A DNA stretch of 64,000 nt from Dehalococcoidia bacterium (GTDB taxonomy: Bacteria; Chloroflexota; Dehalococcoidia; Lucifugimonadales; GCA-002694895): assembly GCA_045564835.1 (NCBI GenBank), contig JBJLGN010000024.1, forward strand, positions 6,265-70,264. The letters are read 5' to 3'. The position numbers were made by a program, and so were the translations under genes. The notes below the pieces were generated by a model. It had not been told where the DNA came from. It did not search any database and saw only the letters and a list, made by a program, of their open reading frames with translations. Below, in pieces: positions 35,304 to 45,519 of the stretch (position 1 is its first letter; each line of letters opens with the position of its first letter).

Positions 35304-35546
35304 TTAATTAATTAAAACTGTTAACTTATTTTCACTGATTTCAGAAAAGCCACCTTGTATATCTATATTTTTTTCCTTAGACCCTGAAAATCTAGCTGTT
35401 ATAGTTCCATGATTCAAAGACGTTATAAGACTAGCATGATTTTTTAAGATAGTTATATAGCCATCTTTTGCTGGTAAAGTTACTGAATCCACTTCACTCT
35501 CAAATTCTAATCCGTTTTTTGAAACAATTTTAATTTCAAATGCCAT
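35304..35546 (-). CDS. atpC: ATP synthase epsilon subunit, beta-sandwich domain only (80 aa)
   Basis: Its position is immediately downstream of atpD. The N-terminal domain pattern is present. The stop abuts the rex stop (1 nt apart, convergent), so there is no room for the usual C-terminal helical hairpin. Confidence 0.8.
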   Translation of the reverse strand: MAFEIKIVSKNGLEFESEVDSVTLPAKDGYITILKNHASLITSLNHGTITARFSGSKEKNIDIQGGFSEISENKLTVLIN

Positions 35547-35554
35547 TTGGTTAC

Positions 35555-36952
<1,398 letters not shown>

Positions 36953-36973
36953 CTATTTTTATAATTTTAATAT

Positions 36974-37852
36974 TTAATTTTCTTCAATAGCTGACATTCC
37001 GCCAACCAAATCTAATAATTCTGATGTTATAGTCTCCTGTCTCGCTTTATTCAAATCTAAAGTCAAATCGTCAACAATCTCTAAAGCATTATCTGTAGCA
37101 TTTTGCATTGCAACCATTCTTGCCGCATGTTCGCTTGCAAGTGAGTCTAAAATAGCTCCATAAATTATAGTTAACACGAATTTAGGCGCAAAATCTAAGA
37201 CCAAATCAATTTGATCAGGTTCAAATATATGACTTCCTATTTGTTCGTTATTGGATTCAGTTAAATCTTCAGTAAAAGGAAGTAAATCAACAACTTGTGC
37301 AGTTTGCTTTGCAACACTATTAAAATGTGTATAAATTAATTTTACTGAAGAATATTTATTTCCTATAAATTCGTTAATAACCAATTCTGACAAATTATTT
37401 ATTTCATCAGAATCAAATTCATCTTTAATTTCATATGATTTTATTAAGTTTTTATTCCTAGATACTAAATATTTTTCAATTTTTTTACCGATTGTAATAA
37501 ATGTGGCTGAATCTTCACTTGTTTTATGAGTTTCAAGAACTTTTACCAAATTTCCAAATAACGGTCCCGCCAATCCCCGATTTGAAGAAATCACAACATA
37601 TAATGTTTTCTGTTCTGAATTGGTTTCTCCACCATTAAACAATGGACTGATTTCTGAAAGTAAATCAAAATCAACAGATCCCATAACACTGTTTTTAATT
37701 TGATCATATCCAGCAGAAAATAAATTAAAATCTTCGGCGGAGTTTTGTGCTTTTCGTAATTTAGAAGCAGCAATCATCTGCATAGCTCCAGTTACCTTAG
37801 CAGTGTTGGAAATAGATTTAATTCTTGTTCTTAATTCTTTAGTGCTCGCCAT
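36974..37852 (-). CDS. atpG: ATP synthase gamma subunit
   Basis: 292 aa. Conserved termini (MASTKELRTRIKS..., ...ITSELLDLVGG) and operon position. Confidence 0.9.
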   Translation of the reverse strand: MASTKELRTRIKSISNTAKVTGAMQMIAASKLRKAQNSAEDFNLFSAGYDQIKNSVMGSVDFDLLSEISPLFNGGETNSEQKTLYVVISSNRGLAGPLFGNLVKVLETHKTSEDSATFITIGKKIEKYLVSRNKNLIKSYEIKDEFDSDEINNLSELVINEFIGNKYSSVKLIYTHFNSVAKQTAQVVDLLPFTEDLTESNNEQIGSHIFEPDQIDLVLDFAPKFVLTIIYGAILDSLASEHAARMVAMQNATDNALEIVDDLTLDLNKARQETITSELLDLVGGMSAIEEN

Positions 37853-37858
37853 ATATTA

Positions 37859-39364
37859 TTAGTAACCCATAGATTTTTTGTATTTCAAACTAACTTCATT
37901 AACTGTTTTCTTATCTTCGTCAGACAATTCTCCAGAAGATTTTATAGAGTCTAATACTTTACTCAAATTTGACTCGGAATAATCATACCAACTTAGTTCA
38001 AATTCTTTAACTTTATCTAGTGGAATATCATCAAATATTCCTTCGTTAACCATGTAAAATAAACAAACTTGTTGCTCCATTGATACCGGAGAAGCTTCGT
38101 TTTGTTTTAATAACTCTAAAATTCTTTGTCCTCTGTCTAATTGTTTCTTTGTAGAATCATCTAAGTCAGATGATCCAAATTGGGCAAAACTTTCTAGTTC
38201 TCGAAATTGAGCCATTTCAATTTTTAAACTTGCAGCTACAGATTTCATTGCTTTTGTTTGAGCAGAACTACCAACTCTTGTAACTGAAAGTCCTAAATTA
38301 ACAGCTGGTCTTATTCCAGAGTTAAACAAATCAGGTTCTAAGTATATCTGTCCATCAGTAATCGAAATAACATTTGTAGGAATATATGCTGAAACATCAC
38401 CTGCTTGAGTTTCTATCACAGGAAGCGCAGTCATAGAAGCTCCTCCATAATCTGGTGAGAGGTTAACAGCTCTTTCTAGCAATCTTGAATGTAAGTAAAA
38501 AACGTCACCAGGATAAGCTTCTCTTCCTGGAGGTCTTCTTAATAATAATGACATTTGCCTATATGCCCATGCATGTTTAGTAAGATCATCATAAACAATT
38601 AACACATCTTTACCTTGTGACATGAAATATTCACCTATGGCACAACCTGAATAAGGAGCTAAATATTGGAGAGCAGCAGATTCTGAAGCATTGGCTGTAA
38701 CCACAATAGTGTGATCCATAGCTCCATTAACTTCTAATTGATTTACTATGTTTGCAACTTTAGATGCCTTCTGACCAATAGATACATAAATACATATCAA
38801 ATCTCCACCTTTCTGGTTAATTATTGCATCAATACAAACGGCCGTTTTACCGGTCCCTCTATCACCAATAACTAATTCTCTTTGTCCTCTTCCAATTGGA
38901 ACAAGCCCATCTACAACTTTTACTCCAAATTGAACAGGTTGATTAACTGATTCACGCTCAACAACACCAGGAGCTATTTTTTCAACCTCAATAGTTTCAG
39001 AAGATTTTATATTTCCTTTTCCATCAACTGGTTGTCCCAATGGATTTAAAACTCTACCTATCATTTCAGGAGCAACAGGAACTTCAACTATTCGACCAGT
39101 ACTCTTTACCTCGTCTCCTTCTTTAATCCCAAGATAATCTCCGAGGATAACGACACCTACAGTATCTTCTTCCAAATTCAAGGCTAATCCGAAAACATCA
39201 TTTTCAAATTGAACAATTTCATTGGCTTTAACATTAGACAGTCCTTGTACTCTAGCTACGCCGTCTCCTGCTTCAGTTACTGTGCCGGTCTCTTCGACCT
39301 TTAAATCGTCACCAAATTGTTTGATTTGTTGCTTTATTATTGAAGCTATATCTTCGTTTGCCAT
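37859..39364 (-). CDS. atpA: ATP synthase alpha subunit
   Basis: 501 aa. Walker A GDRGTGKT. Confidence 0.97.
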
Positions 39365-39380
39365 AACTACCCTCCGTTAG

Positions 39381-39914
39381 TTAAACTAGTTCTCTTTTAA
39401 GTTGTTTCAATTTGTTTTTTAAACTGCCATCTATAACTGAATCACCAATTTTAATTACAATTCCACCAATCAGTGATTTGTCTATTTTTTCTTCTATTTG
39501 AGGATCAGATCCAGAAATAGTTTTAGCTACTTCAGTAATTTTATTCTTTAAGTTATCATCAATTTTATAAGGAGATGAAAGTAAAACACGTACTTTATTA
39601 TTTTGTTTTTCATATTCATTTTCAAATTGGTTAGAAATTTCATCAATTAACAAAAAGGATTGATTTTTAGAAAGTAATTTCACAAAATTGAGCTGTAATT
39701 TGTCAAAAGAACTACCAAAAACTTGATCGATTAATTTAAATTTAGTTTCAACTGTAATCTTAGAAGAATCTAAAATCATTTTAAATTCACTATTCTTTGC
39801 AGATTCGCAAATCAAGTTTAGTTTATTTAACCAATCATCAAAATTGTTTTCATCTAAAGCTAATTCAAATATTGCTCTAGCATATCTTTTTGCTGTTTTT
39901 GAATCTTTTGCCAT
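39381..39914 (-). CDS. atpH: ATP synthase delta subunit (OSCP)
   Basis: 177 aa. N-terminal YARAIFELA and operon position. Confidence 0.85.
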   Translation of the reverse strand: MAKDSKTAKRYARAIFELALDENNFDDWLNKLNLICESAKNSEFKMILDSSKITVETKFKLIDQVFGSSFDKLQLNFVKLLSKNQSFLLIDEISNQFENEYEKQNNKVRVLLSSPYKIDDNLKNKITEVAKTISGSDPQIEEKIDKSLIGGIVIKIGDSVIDGSLKNKLKQLKRELV

Positions 39915-39928
39915 TAATCTATTACACC

Positions 39929-40426
39929 TTAACTTTTAATATTTTTTGCTTTTTCAAGGAATGAAGAAATAATTTGATCATGATTTTTCTCCGTCACTTC
40001 TCTTTCGACTATTTTTTCAGCGGCAGATATAGCAAGTCCCGAAAACTCTGATCTTATGTTGTTGATAATCTTTTCTTGCTCCGATTTTATTTCATCAAGA
40101 GCTCTTTTCCTTTCAGTATCAATTTGCTCTTTACTTTTTTCCATTTCAGATTCTTTGATCTTTTTGGCTTGATCTCTTGCCTCTGAGATTAACATTTGAG
40201 ATTCTTCTCTAGCTTTAATCATCAATGATTCATTTACTTCTGTAGTTTTTTCAGCTTCCTGTTTAACCCTTTCAGCAGTCTCCAAGCTTGATTTAATCTT
40301 TTCAGATCTATCTTCTAACATTTTGACCACTGGAGCGTACAAAAACTTCTTTAACAAAATAAAAAGAATAAGAAAACTAATTACCTGAGTTAAGAGGCCA
40401 GGCCAATTAATGCCTAATGCATCCAT
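39929..40426 (-). CDS. atpF: ATP synthase subunit b
   Basis: 165 aa. A single N-terminal TM helix is followed by a long charged coiled-coil. Operon position also supports the call. Confidence 0.85.
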   Translation of the reverse strand: MDALGINWPGLLTQVISFLILFILLKKFLYAPVVKMLEDRSEKIKSSLETAERVKQEAEKTTEVNESLMIKAREESQMLISEARDQAKKIKESEMEKSKEQIDTERKRALDEIKSEQEKIINNIRSEFSGLAISAAEKIVEREVTEKNHDQIISSFLEKAKNIKS

Positions 40427-40462
40427 AAAAAACTCCTAAATTTTTATTAATGTAAAAAAGAA

Positions 40463-40708
<246 letters not shown>

Positions 40709-40742: not shown

Positions 40743-41942
40743 TCAATGATCATCTGAATTATGCTCTACTGTTGAAATAGAAGCAAAAACCAAGGTTAGC
40801 ATTGAAAATATAAGCCCTTGAATTAGTCCTACGAATAACTCGAGGCCTATAAAAGGAATAATTCCGATCAGCGGTAGTAAAAATGCCATGGCAAATAATA
40901 ATACCTCTCCTGCGAATATATTCCCAAATAATCTAAAAGTAAAACTTAATATCTTGGCAAATTCTCCCACTAATTCTAAAATTCCTACAAAGAAATTTAT
41001 TGGGCCATTTTTAAAATTGATAAATTTGCCCGCATGACCTGTTAATCCTAAATATTTAAATCCCCACCAGTGTATACAGAACATAGCGCAAAGAGCTAAA
41101 GCTAATGTTGTATTCATGTCAGAGTTTGTTCCCCTAAAAAACGGAACCAGAATTCCAACTCTATAGTGATCATCAAAATTCTTTACTCCTAATTCTTTTG
41201 CCTTTATTTCTTTAGCATGTGCAAACTCATGCTCCAGCCAATGATGAGAGCATATTACACTTGCTGATTTTGAATCTTTAGAATGCCCGTATCATGTGAG
41301 TCGGCAAACAGTGATGTGTCCGATGATTTTATCGAATAATCTGTTTTCCCGTATCCAAACATTGTGGACGCAAGTATTCCATTAGTTTTATATACATTGA
41401 ATTTAACATTATGACCCAAGTTATCTTTTTCTTCTTGATGGTGGCAATATTCTTCAGCAGATTCAACTCTTCCTATAGTGCCAGTCCCTGGCAAAACCCC
41501 GATCCAGTTTGACACAACAACAAACAAAAAAATGGTCATTACCAGAGGAAAAAATACTTTTCCTTTCTCATCCCCTGCTATTTTCTTACAGGTGTTGTAC
41601 ATTGCTTCTAATGCAAATTCTATTAAGTTTTGCATTCCTTTGGGTATGATTTTCATATCTTTTGTTGCTTTTCTGGATATGATTGTCAATGCCACAATAG
41701 TAAACATTGACATAAGCAAAGTGTTAGTTAGAGGCGCTATTCAAAAAATCAAATATAAAGCCTTTGGCCTTAAAGTAATATAACGTTTCTGCAGGTATAG
41801 AAATATAAGCAAAGGGTGCGCTAAGAAAACCCAAATCTAGGGCTGTTCCTAAGCCTCCGCCTAAAATTGACACTATGAATAGCGATCCTAAAATAAACGG
41901 ATTTAAAATGATTTTAGATAAGTATGAAAAAATTTTATTCAT
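40743..41942 (-). pseudogene. atpB: ATP synthase subunit a, interrupted by at least 2 frame changes
   Basis: There are three collinear pieces in three frames. The N-terminal piece is 41724-41942. The middle piece is 41255-41719 (TNTLLMSMF..IPKGMQNLIEFA..NWIGVLPG). The C-terminal piece is open from 41291 down to 40743 (..FFRGTNSDMNTTLALAL..RLFGNIFAGE). The junction windows are 41724-41740 (+1) and 41256-41291 (-1 or +2). Confidence 0.8.
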
Positions 41943-41948
41943 TTATAT

Positions 41949-42188
41949 TTAATCAGATTTTAATAACAAATTAACTAAATTATATGTCCCCACCCCAGCA
42001 GTAAATATGCCTAGAAGCAACCCCAGCCACCAAAAAAAAGACTTCTGCTTTTGAGAAAGAAAAAAAAACTCGCTATCCAAGACTCCTAACATTGTCCCTC
42101 CTACTATGCATACAACTACAAACCACCCTATGCCAATCAATTGAAAAGCCAAAACCAACTTCCTAGACCCCAAATTAGCTCTCCTCAA
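41949..42188 (-). CDS. AtpZ/AtpI-like small membrane protein upstream of the atp operon
   Basis: 79 aa with two TM helices, at the position of atpI. It contains in-frame A8 and A9 tracts (42032-42039, 42060-42068). Confidence 0.55.
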   Translation of the reverse strand: MRRANLGSRKLVLAFQLIGIGWFVVVCIVGGTMLGVLDSEFFFLSQKQKSFFWWLGLLLGIFTAGVGTYNLVNLLLKSD

Positions 42189-42238
42189 AACTTTTAAATC
42201 CTATCATATCCATTTAACACGGTCAAACAAATACAATT

Positions 42239-42792
42239 TTAAAAATCGTCTAAATCTAATTCTTCCATAAATTCATCAAAAGCAGACAATTTTAATTCTT
42301 TTTGTTCGGATGATTTTTTATCTTTTGTATCTGCATAGGTTTCTGTTGAGCTTAACTCTTCATCATTCTTGTCTAATTCAAGCCCTGCTTTGTCTAAGCA
42401 CTTTGTCTTCAGCATATATTGGAGCATCGGTTCTTACAGCTAATGCCATAGAGCATCACTTGGTCTAGAATCGATTTCTATCAAATCTCCTTTGAAGTCT
42501 ATCACTATCTTAGCCATAAATGTATCTTCATGATTAACATCCCAGACTACCACATGGTCTAATTTGGCTCCAAGAGATTCGAAATGAATTGCATAAAAGA
42601 TCATGAGTCATAGGGACGTGGTACAGATACATCTTCTAGTTTAAGAGCAATTGCCTCTGCTTCGTTAGTCCCGATCCACATTGGAAGATATCTTTTTGAA
42701 TGCTTCTCCTTAAGAATAACTACTCTTTGGTAATTCATTAGACTAACTCTAATACTGTCTATTACCATTTCGAACATTAAAATACCCAACAT
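42239..42792 (-). pseudogene. DUF151 / bifunctional nuclease-family protein, interrupted by about 4 frame changes
   Basis: The pieces read MFEMVIDSIRVS..YLPMWIGTNEAEAIALKLEDVSVPRP | MTHDL | YAIHFESLGAKLDHVVVWDV..IEIDSRPSDA | MALAVRTDAPIYAEDKVL | DKAGLELDK..., spread over three frames. Confidence 0.75.
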
Positions 42793-42951
42793 TAAATTAG
42801 TAAATTATTCTATCAGTATATTTCATTTTTTTAATATGAACAAGGAACCATCTCGCACGAATTTTTATTACTAAACAAATCAGGTTATAAAATCTGTTGA
42901 TTTTATAATTATTTTACTTATCAACAAATACCAGATTTTTTGATTTTATCA

Positions 42952-43769
42952 TTAAAGCTTAATTGCCGCTTCACGAGCAGCGTCACTCAAAATCTTTGCC
43001 ACCTGATGCGTATATTATTGATCTTGAAGAGTTAATTACATAAGGTATATTTTTTGATTTCAATGACAAATTTATCTTTCCTAAGGAACTGATGACTTCG
43101 CCAATGTCTCCTCCCTGGCTTCCTATTCCTGGAATTAAATAAGTTAATTCCCCGCAAATCTTTTTCAATCTTTTTATATCGTCAATATTTGTTGCCCCTG
43201 CAACCAGTCCGACGTTATCTATTTGTGGAATGCCAACGATTTAACATGATAGCTAAGTATTCATAAAAATACTCGACCTCCATATGACGCAGTCCAATTT
43301 TAATTTTTGCAACTCATCTGAAAGTGGGTTTGATGAACGGCACCATACAAATATCCCTTTTTCTCTATATTCAAAAAATGGCTCAAGTGATTCTTCTCCG
43401 CCGTATGGATTAACAGTAACTGCATCAAAGCCCATATTTTCAAAAATTGAATATGCATATTGCTTGCTTGTATTCCCTATATCACCTCGTTTTGCGTCAG
43501 CTATAGTTATGACATCTGAATTTTTAGACTTTATATAATCAACTGTATCGTATAAGAGACATTTAATACCTTCTCAATCCCTCACTTTCATAAAAAGCGA
43601 AATTTGGCTTGTAAGCACATACAAGATCTATAGTACTGTCAATGATTCTTTTATTAAATTCAAACAAATCTTCAATTGGCATTCTAGATTTGTCAGGATC
43701 TAGTCCAACAGTTAAGAATGGAGAGGTTCTTTTTAACGATATTTTCAAGTTTCGTGCACTAAATTCCAA
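42952..43769 (-). pseudogene. pyrF: Orotidine 5-prime-phosphate decarboxylase (type 2), interrupted by about 4 frame changes
   Basis: The pieces read ..LTVGLDPD..AYKPNFAFYESEGL | GIKCLLYDTVDYIKSKNSDVITIADAKRGDIGNT..GFDAVTVNPYGG..SSNP.. | ..EYLAIMLNRW | ..VGLVAGATNIDD..LIPGIGSQGGD..ASGGKDF | SDAAREAAIKL. Confidence 0.8.
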
Positions 43770-43814
43770 TTTGATCCTCGTTATTATTTTGTAGATGTTT
43801 TTACACTTATAGAT

Positions 43815-44824
43815 TTAAATATAACATATATTTGGTCGTTCAATTTCAAGTTTGAAATTATCAAATGATGTTTTTGAAATGTCACCTATGATTTCAAATC
43901 CCACATTGCAAACTAAGTCTGATTTTTGATTTCAAATCGACATAATCACTCAAACTCACCTTTACGATAATGTTGTCAGCAATAGAGGCATCAGGCTTTG
44001 TCGTATTGGAAATAGCAACTGAAGACGAAGGAATCATTATCGCAACATTTCCGCTTACTCAGCATTCATCTACTAACTTGAATTGGCACAGTGTTAATTT
44101 CTAGTGATTTTAGAAGAGTTGGCTTTTGTCAAATATATATTTTGAAAATCCGAATCACCGTGACTTTCAAGTGACAACTCAGAAGATGAAATTTTTTTGG
44201 CAATACTCCCATTTTTTATTATAAATACATTGTCACAAATAGCTGCCATTTCTGAAACATCATGAGACACATAAATTATTGGAATTTTATATTCTGCATT
44301 AATTTTTTTTAAGTAATTCAAAATCATAAGTTTAGAATTCAAATCTAATTCAGACAATGGTTCATCCATTAAAAGTACATTAGGGTTTCTAGCTAAAGCC
44401 CTAGCAATGCTGACTTTTTGTGCCTGGCCTCCTGAAATCTGGTTTGGGAATTTTGGCAACAAATCACTGATATTCATCATGTCAATGATATCTCTCAATG
44501 TTTATTTTGTTCCCAGCTCTTTGTATCCGTAATGTATGTTTTCACTGATATTCATTGAAGGAAACAAATTAGGTTTCTGTGTGACATAACCAATATTGCG
44601 CTTTTCTGGAGGCAGTAAAATTTTCTTTTTCGAATCATAGAATGTCTTCGCCTTGCATCAAAGATATATTACCTGAGTCAGGGTTTGTAAATCCTGCAAT
44701 ACAATTCAACAAAGTAGATTTACCCGATCCGGAAGGGCCAAATATTCCATTAATTTTTTCATCCAGCAGCAAAGTTACAATTTAATACAAAATTATTGTA
44801 AGTTTTCTCAAATTTGATATCCAT
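43815..44824 (-). pseudogene. modC: Molybdate ABC transporter ATP-binding protein, interrupted by at least 4 frame changes and one in-frame TAA
   Basis: The pieces read MDIKFEKTYNNFVLNCNF | LLDEKINGIFGPSGSGKSTLLNCIAGF.. | DSKKKILLPPEKRNIGYVTQKPNLFP..YGYKELGTK * TLRDII..ISGGQAQKVSIARALA..LLMDEP.., followed by a TOBE-like C-terminus in two further frames. Confidence 0.75.
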
Positions 44825-45509
44825 TAAGCTCCATCTATGTCTTTTTTGATCTGATAAACCAGTATGTTATTAACTACTACAGAAAATATACCCAGCACTA
44901 CTGAGCATAGTATCAAGTATGCTTAAATTTTGATCATCGCCTGTTTGAATTGATTGGAATATAGCCAAAGGAATCGTGCGTGAGACTCCCTCAATATTCC
45001 CGGCAAAGATAATTGTAGCTCCAAATTCTCCTAAGTGCCCTTGCAAAACCTAACAGTATGCCTCCTGAGATTCCAAAGAAAGCTTTCTCTCAAGGTTATT
45101 GTAAAAAACATCTTGATGTTACTAGATCCTAGTGACCTCGCTACTTTTCTCCAGATCTCTATCGACTGACTCTAAAGCTATTATAAATGATCTTGCCATA
45201 AGTGGAAATGAAACTAGTGCGCAAGCTAATATGGCAGCAAATTTTGTAAATACTATCTCTATTCCCATTCCTTCTCAATATTTGACCAACAAACCCGGCA
45301 GGACTGAAAGTTATTAATAGAAAGTATCCCAAGACAACTGGGGGCAAAACCAAGGGTAGTGAAATCATTATATCAGTAACAAATTTTAATGATTTGTGCT
45401 TTCGATCTCGTTATTACCACTGATCGAAGACAAAAATGATAGTGGTATATTAATCAAAGTAGCAATTAATGCTATTTCTAATGTTAATATCAAGAGATTG
45501 GGTTACCAT
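44824..45509 (-). pseudogene. modB: Molybdate ABC transporter permease, interrupted by at least 6 frame changes
   Basis: Reconstruction is colinear with my recollection of E. coli ModB: ..SLPLVLPPVVLGYFLL.. | GIEIVFTKFAAILACALVSFPLMARSFIIALESVDRDLEK | VARSLGSSNIKMFFTITL.. | GISGGILLGFARAL | GEFGATIIFAGNIEGVSRTIPLAI... The stop overlaps the modC ATG (TAATG). Confidence 0.75.
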
Positions 45510-45519
45510 GAATTAAAAA

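Follow-up and report, generated by a model that had tools for sequence, protein, structure and literature searches.

Why should the gene for subunit a of an F-type ATP synthase lie in pieces next to intact genes for its partner subunits? In the window, by which we mean the whole 64,000-nt stretch of Dehalococcoidia contig JBJLGN010000024.1 that was analysed, the operon context a-c-b-delta-alpha-gamma-beta-epsilon is present. The genes atpE, atpF, atpH, atpA, atpG, atpD and atpC (35304..40693, minus strand), encoding subunits c, b, delta, alpha, gamma, beta and epsilon, are intact, just as the original prediction had it. Its statement that atpB (40743..41942, minus strand) is spread over three frames was likewise borne out: tblastn with an intact orthologue as the query recovered three collinear pieces on the minus strand, namely residues 1-70 in frame -3, residues 39-218 in frame -1 and residues 219-398 in frame -3. 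The same search recovered no second atpB copy within the window. The Pfam profile PF00119 (ATP-synt_A), which scored 142 bits on the intact orthologue P0001 (cut-off 33.9), recognised the window fragments with 61.9 and 89.9 bits. The sequence FRLFGNIFAGE, including the conserved Arg motif 'RLFGN' of the c-ring-facing helix, is encoded within 40743-41117, and R336 of AtpB was invariant among 61 homologues.

Two frame changes had been predicted, one at 41256-41291, inside a long His/acidic loop, and the other at 41724-41740, just before TM1. Both are found inside these intervals: a 2-nt insertion (CG on the plus strand) at 41288..41289 and a 1-nt insertion (G) at 41731..41731. Removal of these three bases produces an ORF of 398 aa, in agreement with the anticipated protein of about 400 aa, and the frame-corrected AtpB differs from that of the related contig L001 by 10 residues, all of them at positions 83-253. 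Direct reading of the sequence revealed no evident slippery-type repeat or homopolymer at 41288 or 41731.

Related contigs give a first answer. An exact AtpF look-up led to ten contigs (L001-L010) coming from independent marine metagenomes and one NCBI assembly, and every one of them that reaches the region encodes a 398-aa PF00119 protein, an 86-aa PF09527 protein and intact BFN, OMPdecase, ModCBA and ThiF. In all, an intact 398-aa atpB was present in L001-L003, L006, L008, L009, L011-L016, L097 and L098. The AtpB orthologues, a comparison proposed in the original prediction, are thus intact, 398 aa long and equipped with the long loop. The frameshift sites are unconserved in 19 contigs of the same population (L001-L016 and L097-L099). 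Three fragment ORFs of the window (41255-41719, 44094-44498 and 41724-41942) had no record in the gene collection, while the intact genes were widespread there. The host population belongs to low-GC marine Chloroflexota; the best match among GTDB species representatives is L017 (CAJWSY010000004.1, 'uncultured Chloroflexi bacterium ERR599082_bin.30'), 85% identical and carrying an atpB of a 414-aa type, and the more distant species-representative matches are named Dehalococcoidia or SAR202.

The damage is also not confined to atpB, which had been taken for the only broken gene of the operon. Directly upstream, an AtpZ/AtpI-like gene (PF09527, ATPase_gene1; 41949..42213, minus strand, 86 aa in relatives) is broken by four 1-nt insertions at 42025/6, 42060, 42081 and 42178. 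One of the four lengthens an A-run; the gene itself lies approximately 7 nt upstream of atpB in all relatives. Farther on, the genes for a BFN-domain nuclease, pyrF, modC, modB and modA (minus strand) and thiF/moeB (plus strand), located at 42239..47142, are fragmented by the same merge that we describe below, and contigs of either parental type carry every one of them unbroken. With a minimum length of 90 aa, the ORFs leave a gap at about 41.1-47.1 kb of the window, and gene damage runs on past atpB up to 46864.

The surroundings of the damaged genes deserve a short comment. A gene for a Rex-type redox-sensing repressor (PF06971 + PF02629; 34676-35302) lies on the opposite strand, so that its 3' end meets that of the atp operon at the end of the epsilon-subunit gene; the protein is 208 aa long in contigs of haplotype A and 210 aa long in those of the L011 group. 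Within the operon, the delta subunit gene atpH (39381-39914) encodes 177 aa; a shortened N-terminal domain of delta has been tied to a two-stalk architecture and called common in Chloroflexi (PMC12002316). At the other side of the damaged genes, positions 47137-49750 hold two tandem paralogous amidohydrolase genes (PF01979/PF07969) with mechanical ORFs of 453 and 445 aa. Compared with the 421-aa gene called in relatives, the first of these ORFs begins much farther upstream, at a GTG, and it overlaps the second one.

Two natural haplotypes account for almost every base of the damaged stretch. Haplotype A is represented by L001, L002 and L003, and haplotype B by L097 and L098, with L007 of a similar type; the two diverge by about 10-12%, mostly at synonymous sites. 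Compared with L002 and L003, the window shows 0-3 differences per kb on the flanks; inside the block, it departs from them by approximately 50 substitutions per kb and, in addition, by insertions. L007 is approximately 5% divergent overall and approximately 9.5% divergent over the stretch overlapping the block. When L007 was used as B over 40750-41398, its allele was found at 31 of the 32 sites where the window departs from L002. A 45-mer with four predicted B alleles then led to the metagenome contigs L097-L099, which span the block. L011-L016 were also considered as haplotype B and rejected, as they explained just 75-79% of the window-specific alleles.

The merged block, which we interpret as a per-site consensus of A and B, occupies 40794..47133 and comprises 60 insertion events, no deletions and about 300 substitutions relative to either parent, with raised GC. 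It starts between 40703 and 40794 and ends at about 46969-47133. The seven intact atp genes mentioned above are outside of it and are pure haplotype A. The C-terminal half of atpB, which had been described as undamaged, is in frame indeed, but it is already inside the block, the first haplotype-B allele being found at 40794.

We counted the origin of the bases with L001 as A and L097 as B. At the 5270 sites where A and B agree, the window deviates at only 14; at the 718 sites where they disagree, it has the A base at 422, the B base at 294 and neither of the two at 2. Overall, 5972 of 5988 block sites (99.7%) match A or B, and the source switches between A and B 300 times across 730 informative sites. 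The choice is governed by the base: a fixed order C>G>T>A, read on the plus strand of the window, is obeyed at 644 of 716 sites (p = 9e-116). Taken pair by pair, G was chosen over A 202:18, C over T 199:24, T over A 142:17, C over A 50:10, G over T 41:2 and C over G 10:1. The 61 mismatches between L002 and L007 behave in the same manner, with G over A 21:2, C over T 17:2, T over A 9:0, C over A 5:0 and G over T 4:1. In the flanks, the rule holds at only about 55% of sites. With L097 as a stand-in for the true B, 72 of the 716 sites are off the rule and 14 sites are unexplained. We know of no encoding or IUPAC-resolution rule that would yield the order C>G>T>A, which reads G>C>A>T on the opposite strand.

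Such a choice of alleles leaves its traces in the composition of the block. The substitutions fall on third codon positions in 71% of cases, 68% of them are synonymous and none creates a stop, which excludes random error. They are also nearly all one-directional on the plus strand (A->G, T->C, A->T, A->C, T->G and G->C), which excludes ordinary divergence; in flank comparisons of natural strains (L002 vs. L007, L010 and L001), the directions are balanced. The GC content of the block is 33.5% in the window vs. 29.2-29.7% in all five natural haplotypes compared, as predicted by a union consensus under C>G>T>A, and the flanks have equal GC in the window and in the natural haplotypes. The right flank (46950-50700) is 99.5% identical to L003, and the left flank 99.95%. 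In the right flank, there are 17 scattered haplotype-B-type alleles which do not follow the base-order rule; these are more suggestive of ordinary variation between strains than of another merge.

The insertions tell the same story as the substitutions. All 60 indel events relative to L001 are insertions in the window (84 nt in total, 1-4 nt each), with 0 deletions; all are located between 41288 and 46864, and not in homopolymers. The inserted bases are approximately 52% G+C in a genome of approximately 30% GC, and none of the 60 events occurs in any related contig. At nearly all insertion sites, A and B are equal in length and the window is longer than both. The insertions sit where a gapped alignment of A and B staggers, and there both alleles are kept. 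Both events of atpB may be read in this way: at 41731, A has TTA-AGGC, B has TTAGAG-C and the window has TTAGAGGC, while the sequence at 41288 consists of an L002-type prefix and an L007/L097-type suffix with a 2-nt slip between them.

In a dynamic-programming test, 50 of the 54 insertion-bearing segments were exactly reproduced as a gapped A/B merge; when the inserted base was changed as a control, this held for 80 of 180 segments (p = 1e-13). The remaining 4 of the 54 segments were not reproducible with L097 as B. The merge test replaced a strict common-supersequence test of A and B, which was passed by 12 of the 60 events and which ignores plain mismatches in a segment. We also simulated the merge of the whole block from a global A/B alignment (match +1, mismatch -3, gap -2) by taking the union consensus under C>G>T>A. 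The simulated merge is 6233 nt long vs. 6241 nt in the window and differs from it by 23 mismatches and 18 gap columns, so that the block is reproduced to 99.3%. Against the parents themselves, the window shows 300 + 84 differences (A) and 318 + 83 differences (B).

Overall, we conclude that the window at approximately 40.79-47.1 kb is almost certainly a consensus of two co-occurring strain haplotypes of a marine Chloroflexota population and the sequence of no organism. The 'broken' atpB is a consensus or merging artefact, and not a pseudogene, a recoding event or a product of repair. At each mismatch column, one base was taken by the fixed order C>G>T>A on the plus strand of the window, and at each gap column the base was kept. 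Where two nearby mismatches were staggered into a pair of gaps, both alleles were written, giving 1-4 extra bases. Three such extra bases split atpB into three, and 81 more break AtpZ, BFN, pyrF, modCBA and thiF. Haplotype A also forms both flanks, and an intact 398-aa subunit a is encoded by both parental haplotypes. The suggestion that atpB is the sharpest place to separate artefact from biology was well made, and the outcome is artefact. The dead-gene reading of atpB, on the other hand, has to be given up: near-identical strains have an intact atpB, and the frameshifting bases are a blend of two haplotypes.

Four other explanations have to be weighed against the two-strain consensus. The one that survives best, while being very improbable, supposes a natural recombinant of A and B that was sequenced at low depth with insertion-prone long reads, the indels being random read errors. 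It would agree with indels that are insertions without exception, avoid homopolymers and are approximately 52% G+C in a genome of approximately 30% GC, and also with the four metagenome contigs that break at 41.08-41.5 kb and so point to strain heterogeneity there. However, a natural recombinant would show neither 300 switches of parent over 730 sites nor alleles chosen by the identity of the base. Random errors, in turn, would yield neither the match with the A/B alignment in 50 of 54 segments nor the agreement with the simulation, and the GC content of the block lies above that of both parents. Random long-read insertion error had been a first reading of the locus; it was dropped in view of substitutions that are third-position-biased, one-directional and allele-for-allele as in L007.

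Somewhat less probable still is genuine pseudogenisation, that is, a 6-kb segment with atpB and pyrF decaying in this strain. Eight adjacent genes are frame-broken and the window offers no second atpB, as would be expected in this case. Nevertheless, decay would not leave substitutions that are 71% third-position and 68% synonymous without a single stop; the pattern is due to their being alleles of haplotype B, which is natural and intact. Neither would decay yield insertions and no deletions, inserted bases that are parental alleles, a base choice following a fixed order, or sharp boundaries with flanks identical to haplotype A. The insertions are absent from all related contigs, and the three fragment ORFs are not on record. 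Finally, the joint loss of atpB and pyrF would be severely deleterious.

A mosaic formed by A/B recombination, with the heteroduplex then resolved in very short patches by a GC-biased mismatch repair, is a scenario to which we assign hardly any weight. GC-biased gene conversion has been proposed in bacteria, and the direction from AT to GC at A/B mismatches is strong here. Yet GC-biased repair does not predict T over A at 142:17 or C over G at 10:1 on one strand, and no repair bias described so far comes near one of about 90% in which mismatches are resolved independently at intervals of roughly 8 bp. Moreover, repair is unable to write both alleles side by side, and its product would destroy essential genes. 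As for programmed ribosomal frameshifting or another kind of recoding that would restore AtpB from its three frames, the pieces are collinear and complete, but the idea is practically negligible given that near-identical strains need no frameshift, that 57 further frame-breaking insertions hit seven unrelated genes on both strands, and that neither 41288 nor 41731 has an evident slippery-type repeat or homopolymer.

Returning to the two-strain consensus, we may ask at which step the haplotypes were blended. A contig-merging or a consensus/polishing step, with ties at two-fold depth, is the likely place. It would fit if a contained haplotype-B contig had been merged into a haplotype-A contig, with ties decided by base order and gaps filled. 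Blending downstream of the original assembly, for example by resolving IUPAC ambiguity codes to fixed bases, would fit too. Merging tools may prefer the longer path, and so may consensus methods that follow the heaviest path. The block shares with strain-collapsed or chimeric metagenome consensus sequences the collapse of two natural haplotypes, deterministic ties and filled gap columns, as well as spurious frameshifts in a sharply bounded segment with clean flanks. Both the C>G>T>A order and the restriction of the indels to insertions were deduced here from the sequence itself.

The practical consequences are straightforward. A false lead is removed: atpB is not dead, the 6-kb block is not decaying and nothing is recoded. 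The window at 40.79-47.1 kb is unfit for gene calling and for dN/dS, GC or strain analyses. Its signature may help to detect merged blocks in other assemblies; the parts of this signature are insertion-only indels, one-directional 'substitutions' following a fixed base order, a GC content above every natural haplotype and flanks identical to one parent.

What remains for biology is the long loop of AtpB. The original prediction described an extra segment of about 100 aa, rich in His and acidic residues, and this segment is real: the periplasmic aH3-aH4 linker (41151..41473, minus strand) covers residues 157-263 and is His/acidic/Ser/Lys-rich, its 107 residues including 10 His, 16 Asp+Glu, 11 Lys, 14 Ser and 2 Cys. 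The loop also proved to be lineage-typical, a matter which had been left for checking; it is present in related AtpB proteins, and its site is that of an insertion in the Chloroflexus subunit. The closest AtpB relatives (P0001-P0006) have 389-414 aa and the next tier has 345-360 aa, while bacterial a-subunits in the PDB typically have 223-291 aa. Only the close clade of P0001-P0006 and L017 has the 389-414 aa form. At the start of the loop, the motif 'EE..HH.EE' is conserved, and His167 and His168 occur in at least 90% of the 61 homologues. Two cysteines, Cys166 (EEYCHHQ) and Cys230 (ICSHHW), are both present in all members of the 389-414 aa clade and both absent from the ~350-aa Dehalococcoidia relatives.

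Within the clade, P0002 and L017, which represent the sister species, have an AtpB of 414 aa, whose loop contains 16 additional residues rich in Ser, Asp and Lys, SKSDSLQSKDSNSKSD, and P0006 (389 aa) is without part of the loop stretch. Judging by these proteins, the length of the loop changes quickly within the clade. At the nucleotide level, four independent metagenome or MAG contigs (L004, L005, L007 and L010) end inside atpB at window positions 41078-41501, and three of the four ends are within the loop-coding region or no more than about 30 nt from it; at the level of strains, the region of the loop resembles a hotspot at which assemblies break. An AlphaFold model of P0001, built with 61 sequences, has a mean pLDDT of 70, with only about 50-67 in the loop. 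It suggests tentative helices at residues 162-171 and 232-250 and a few strands, the confidence in the loop being low to moderate.

The best match among solved structures was the a-subunit of Chloroflexus aurantiacus (PDB 9ITJ series; 9itj_T, 312 aa, E = 6e-51). The two proteins align in two blocks, query residues 62-165 with chain residues 38-142 and query residues 264-395 with chain residues 180-308, and the extra segment lies between them. In the Chloroflexus a-subunit, an insertion (His142-Thr172) was described in the aH3-aH4 linker and called unique among the a-subunits compared there; the linker is partly disordered and lies on the periplasmic surface, where a Cys135-Cys173 disulfide brackets the insertion (PMC12002316). 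The Chloroflexus enzyme has two a-subunits and two stalks (PMC12002316). The extra segment of our AtpB occupies the same position, and it too carries two Cys close to its ends. On the other hand, the linker comprises approximately 107 residues here and the insertion approximately 31 residues there, the proteins being 398 aa and 312 aa long, respectively. The cysteines do not align either: Chloroflexus Cys135 pairs with residue 159 of our protein, while its Cys are at positions 166 and 230. Cys166 and Cys230 may form a counterpart of the Cys135-Cys173 disulfide of Chloroflexus at non-aligned positions. AtpB of other marine Dehalococcoidia/SAR202-type bacteria (about 345-360 aa) is 43-51% identical, has the same architecture and keeps the 'EE..HH.EE' motif, but it lacks approximately 45-60 loop residues and both Cys.

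Since the alignment with Chloroflexus and the insertion described there point to the same site, the loop is a genuine, longer version of an aH3-aH4 linker trait that marks the a-subunits of Chloroflexota. It is tempting to suppose, though we consider it unlikely, that the 107-residue linker with its clade-specific pair of Cys is a functional module at the periplasmic face of Fo. Such a module could serve, for instance, as an antenna that collects protons or senses metals or pH; provided that the double stator of the Chloroflexus type is shared, it could also connect two a-subunits. The alternative is a tolerated disordered loop. Overall, the biological remainder of this locus is modest: in a marine clade, the Chloroflexota-specific aH3-aH4 linker of subunit a is approximately three-fold expanded.
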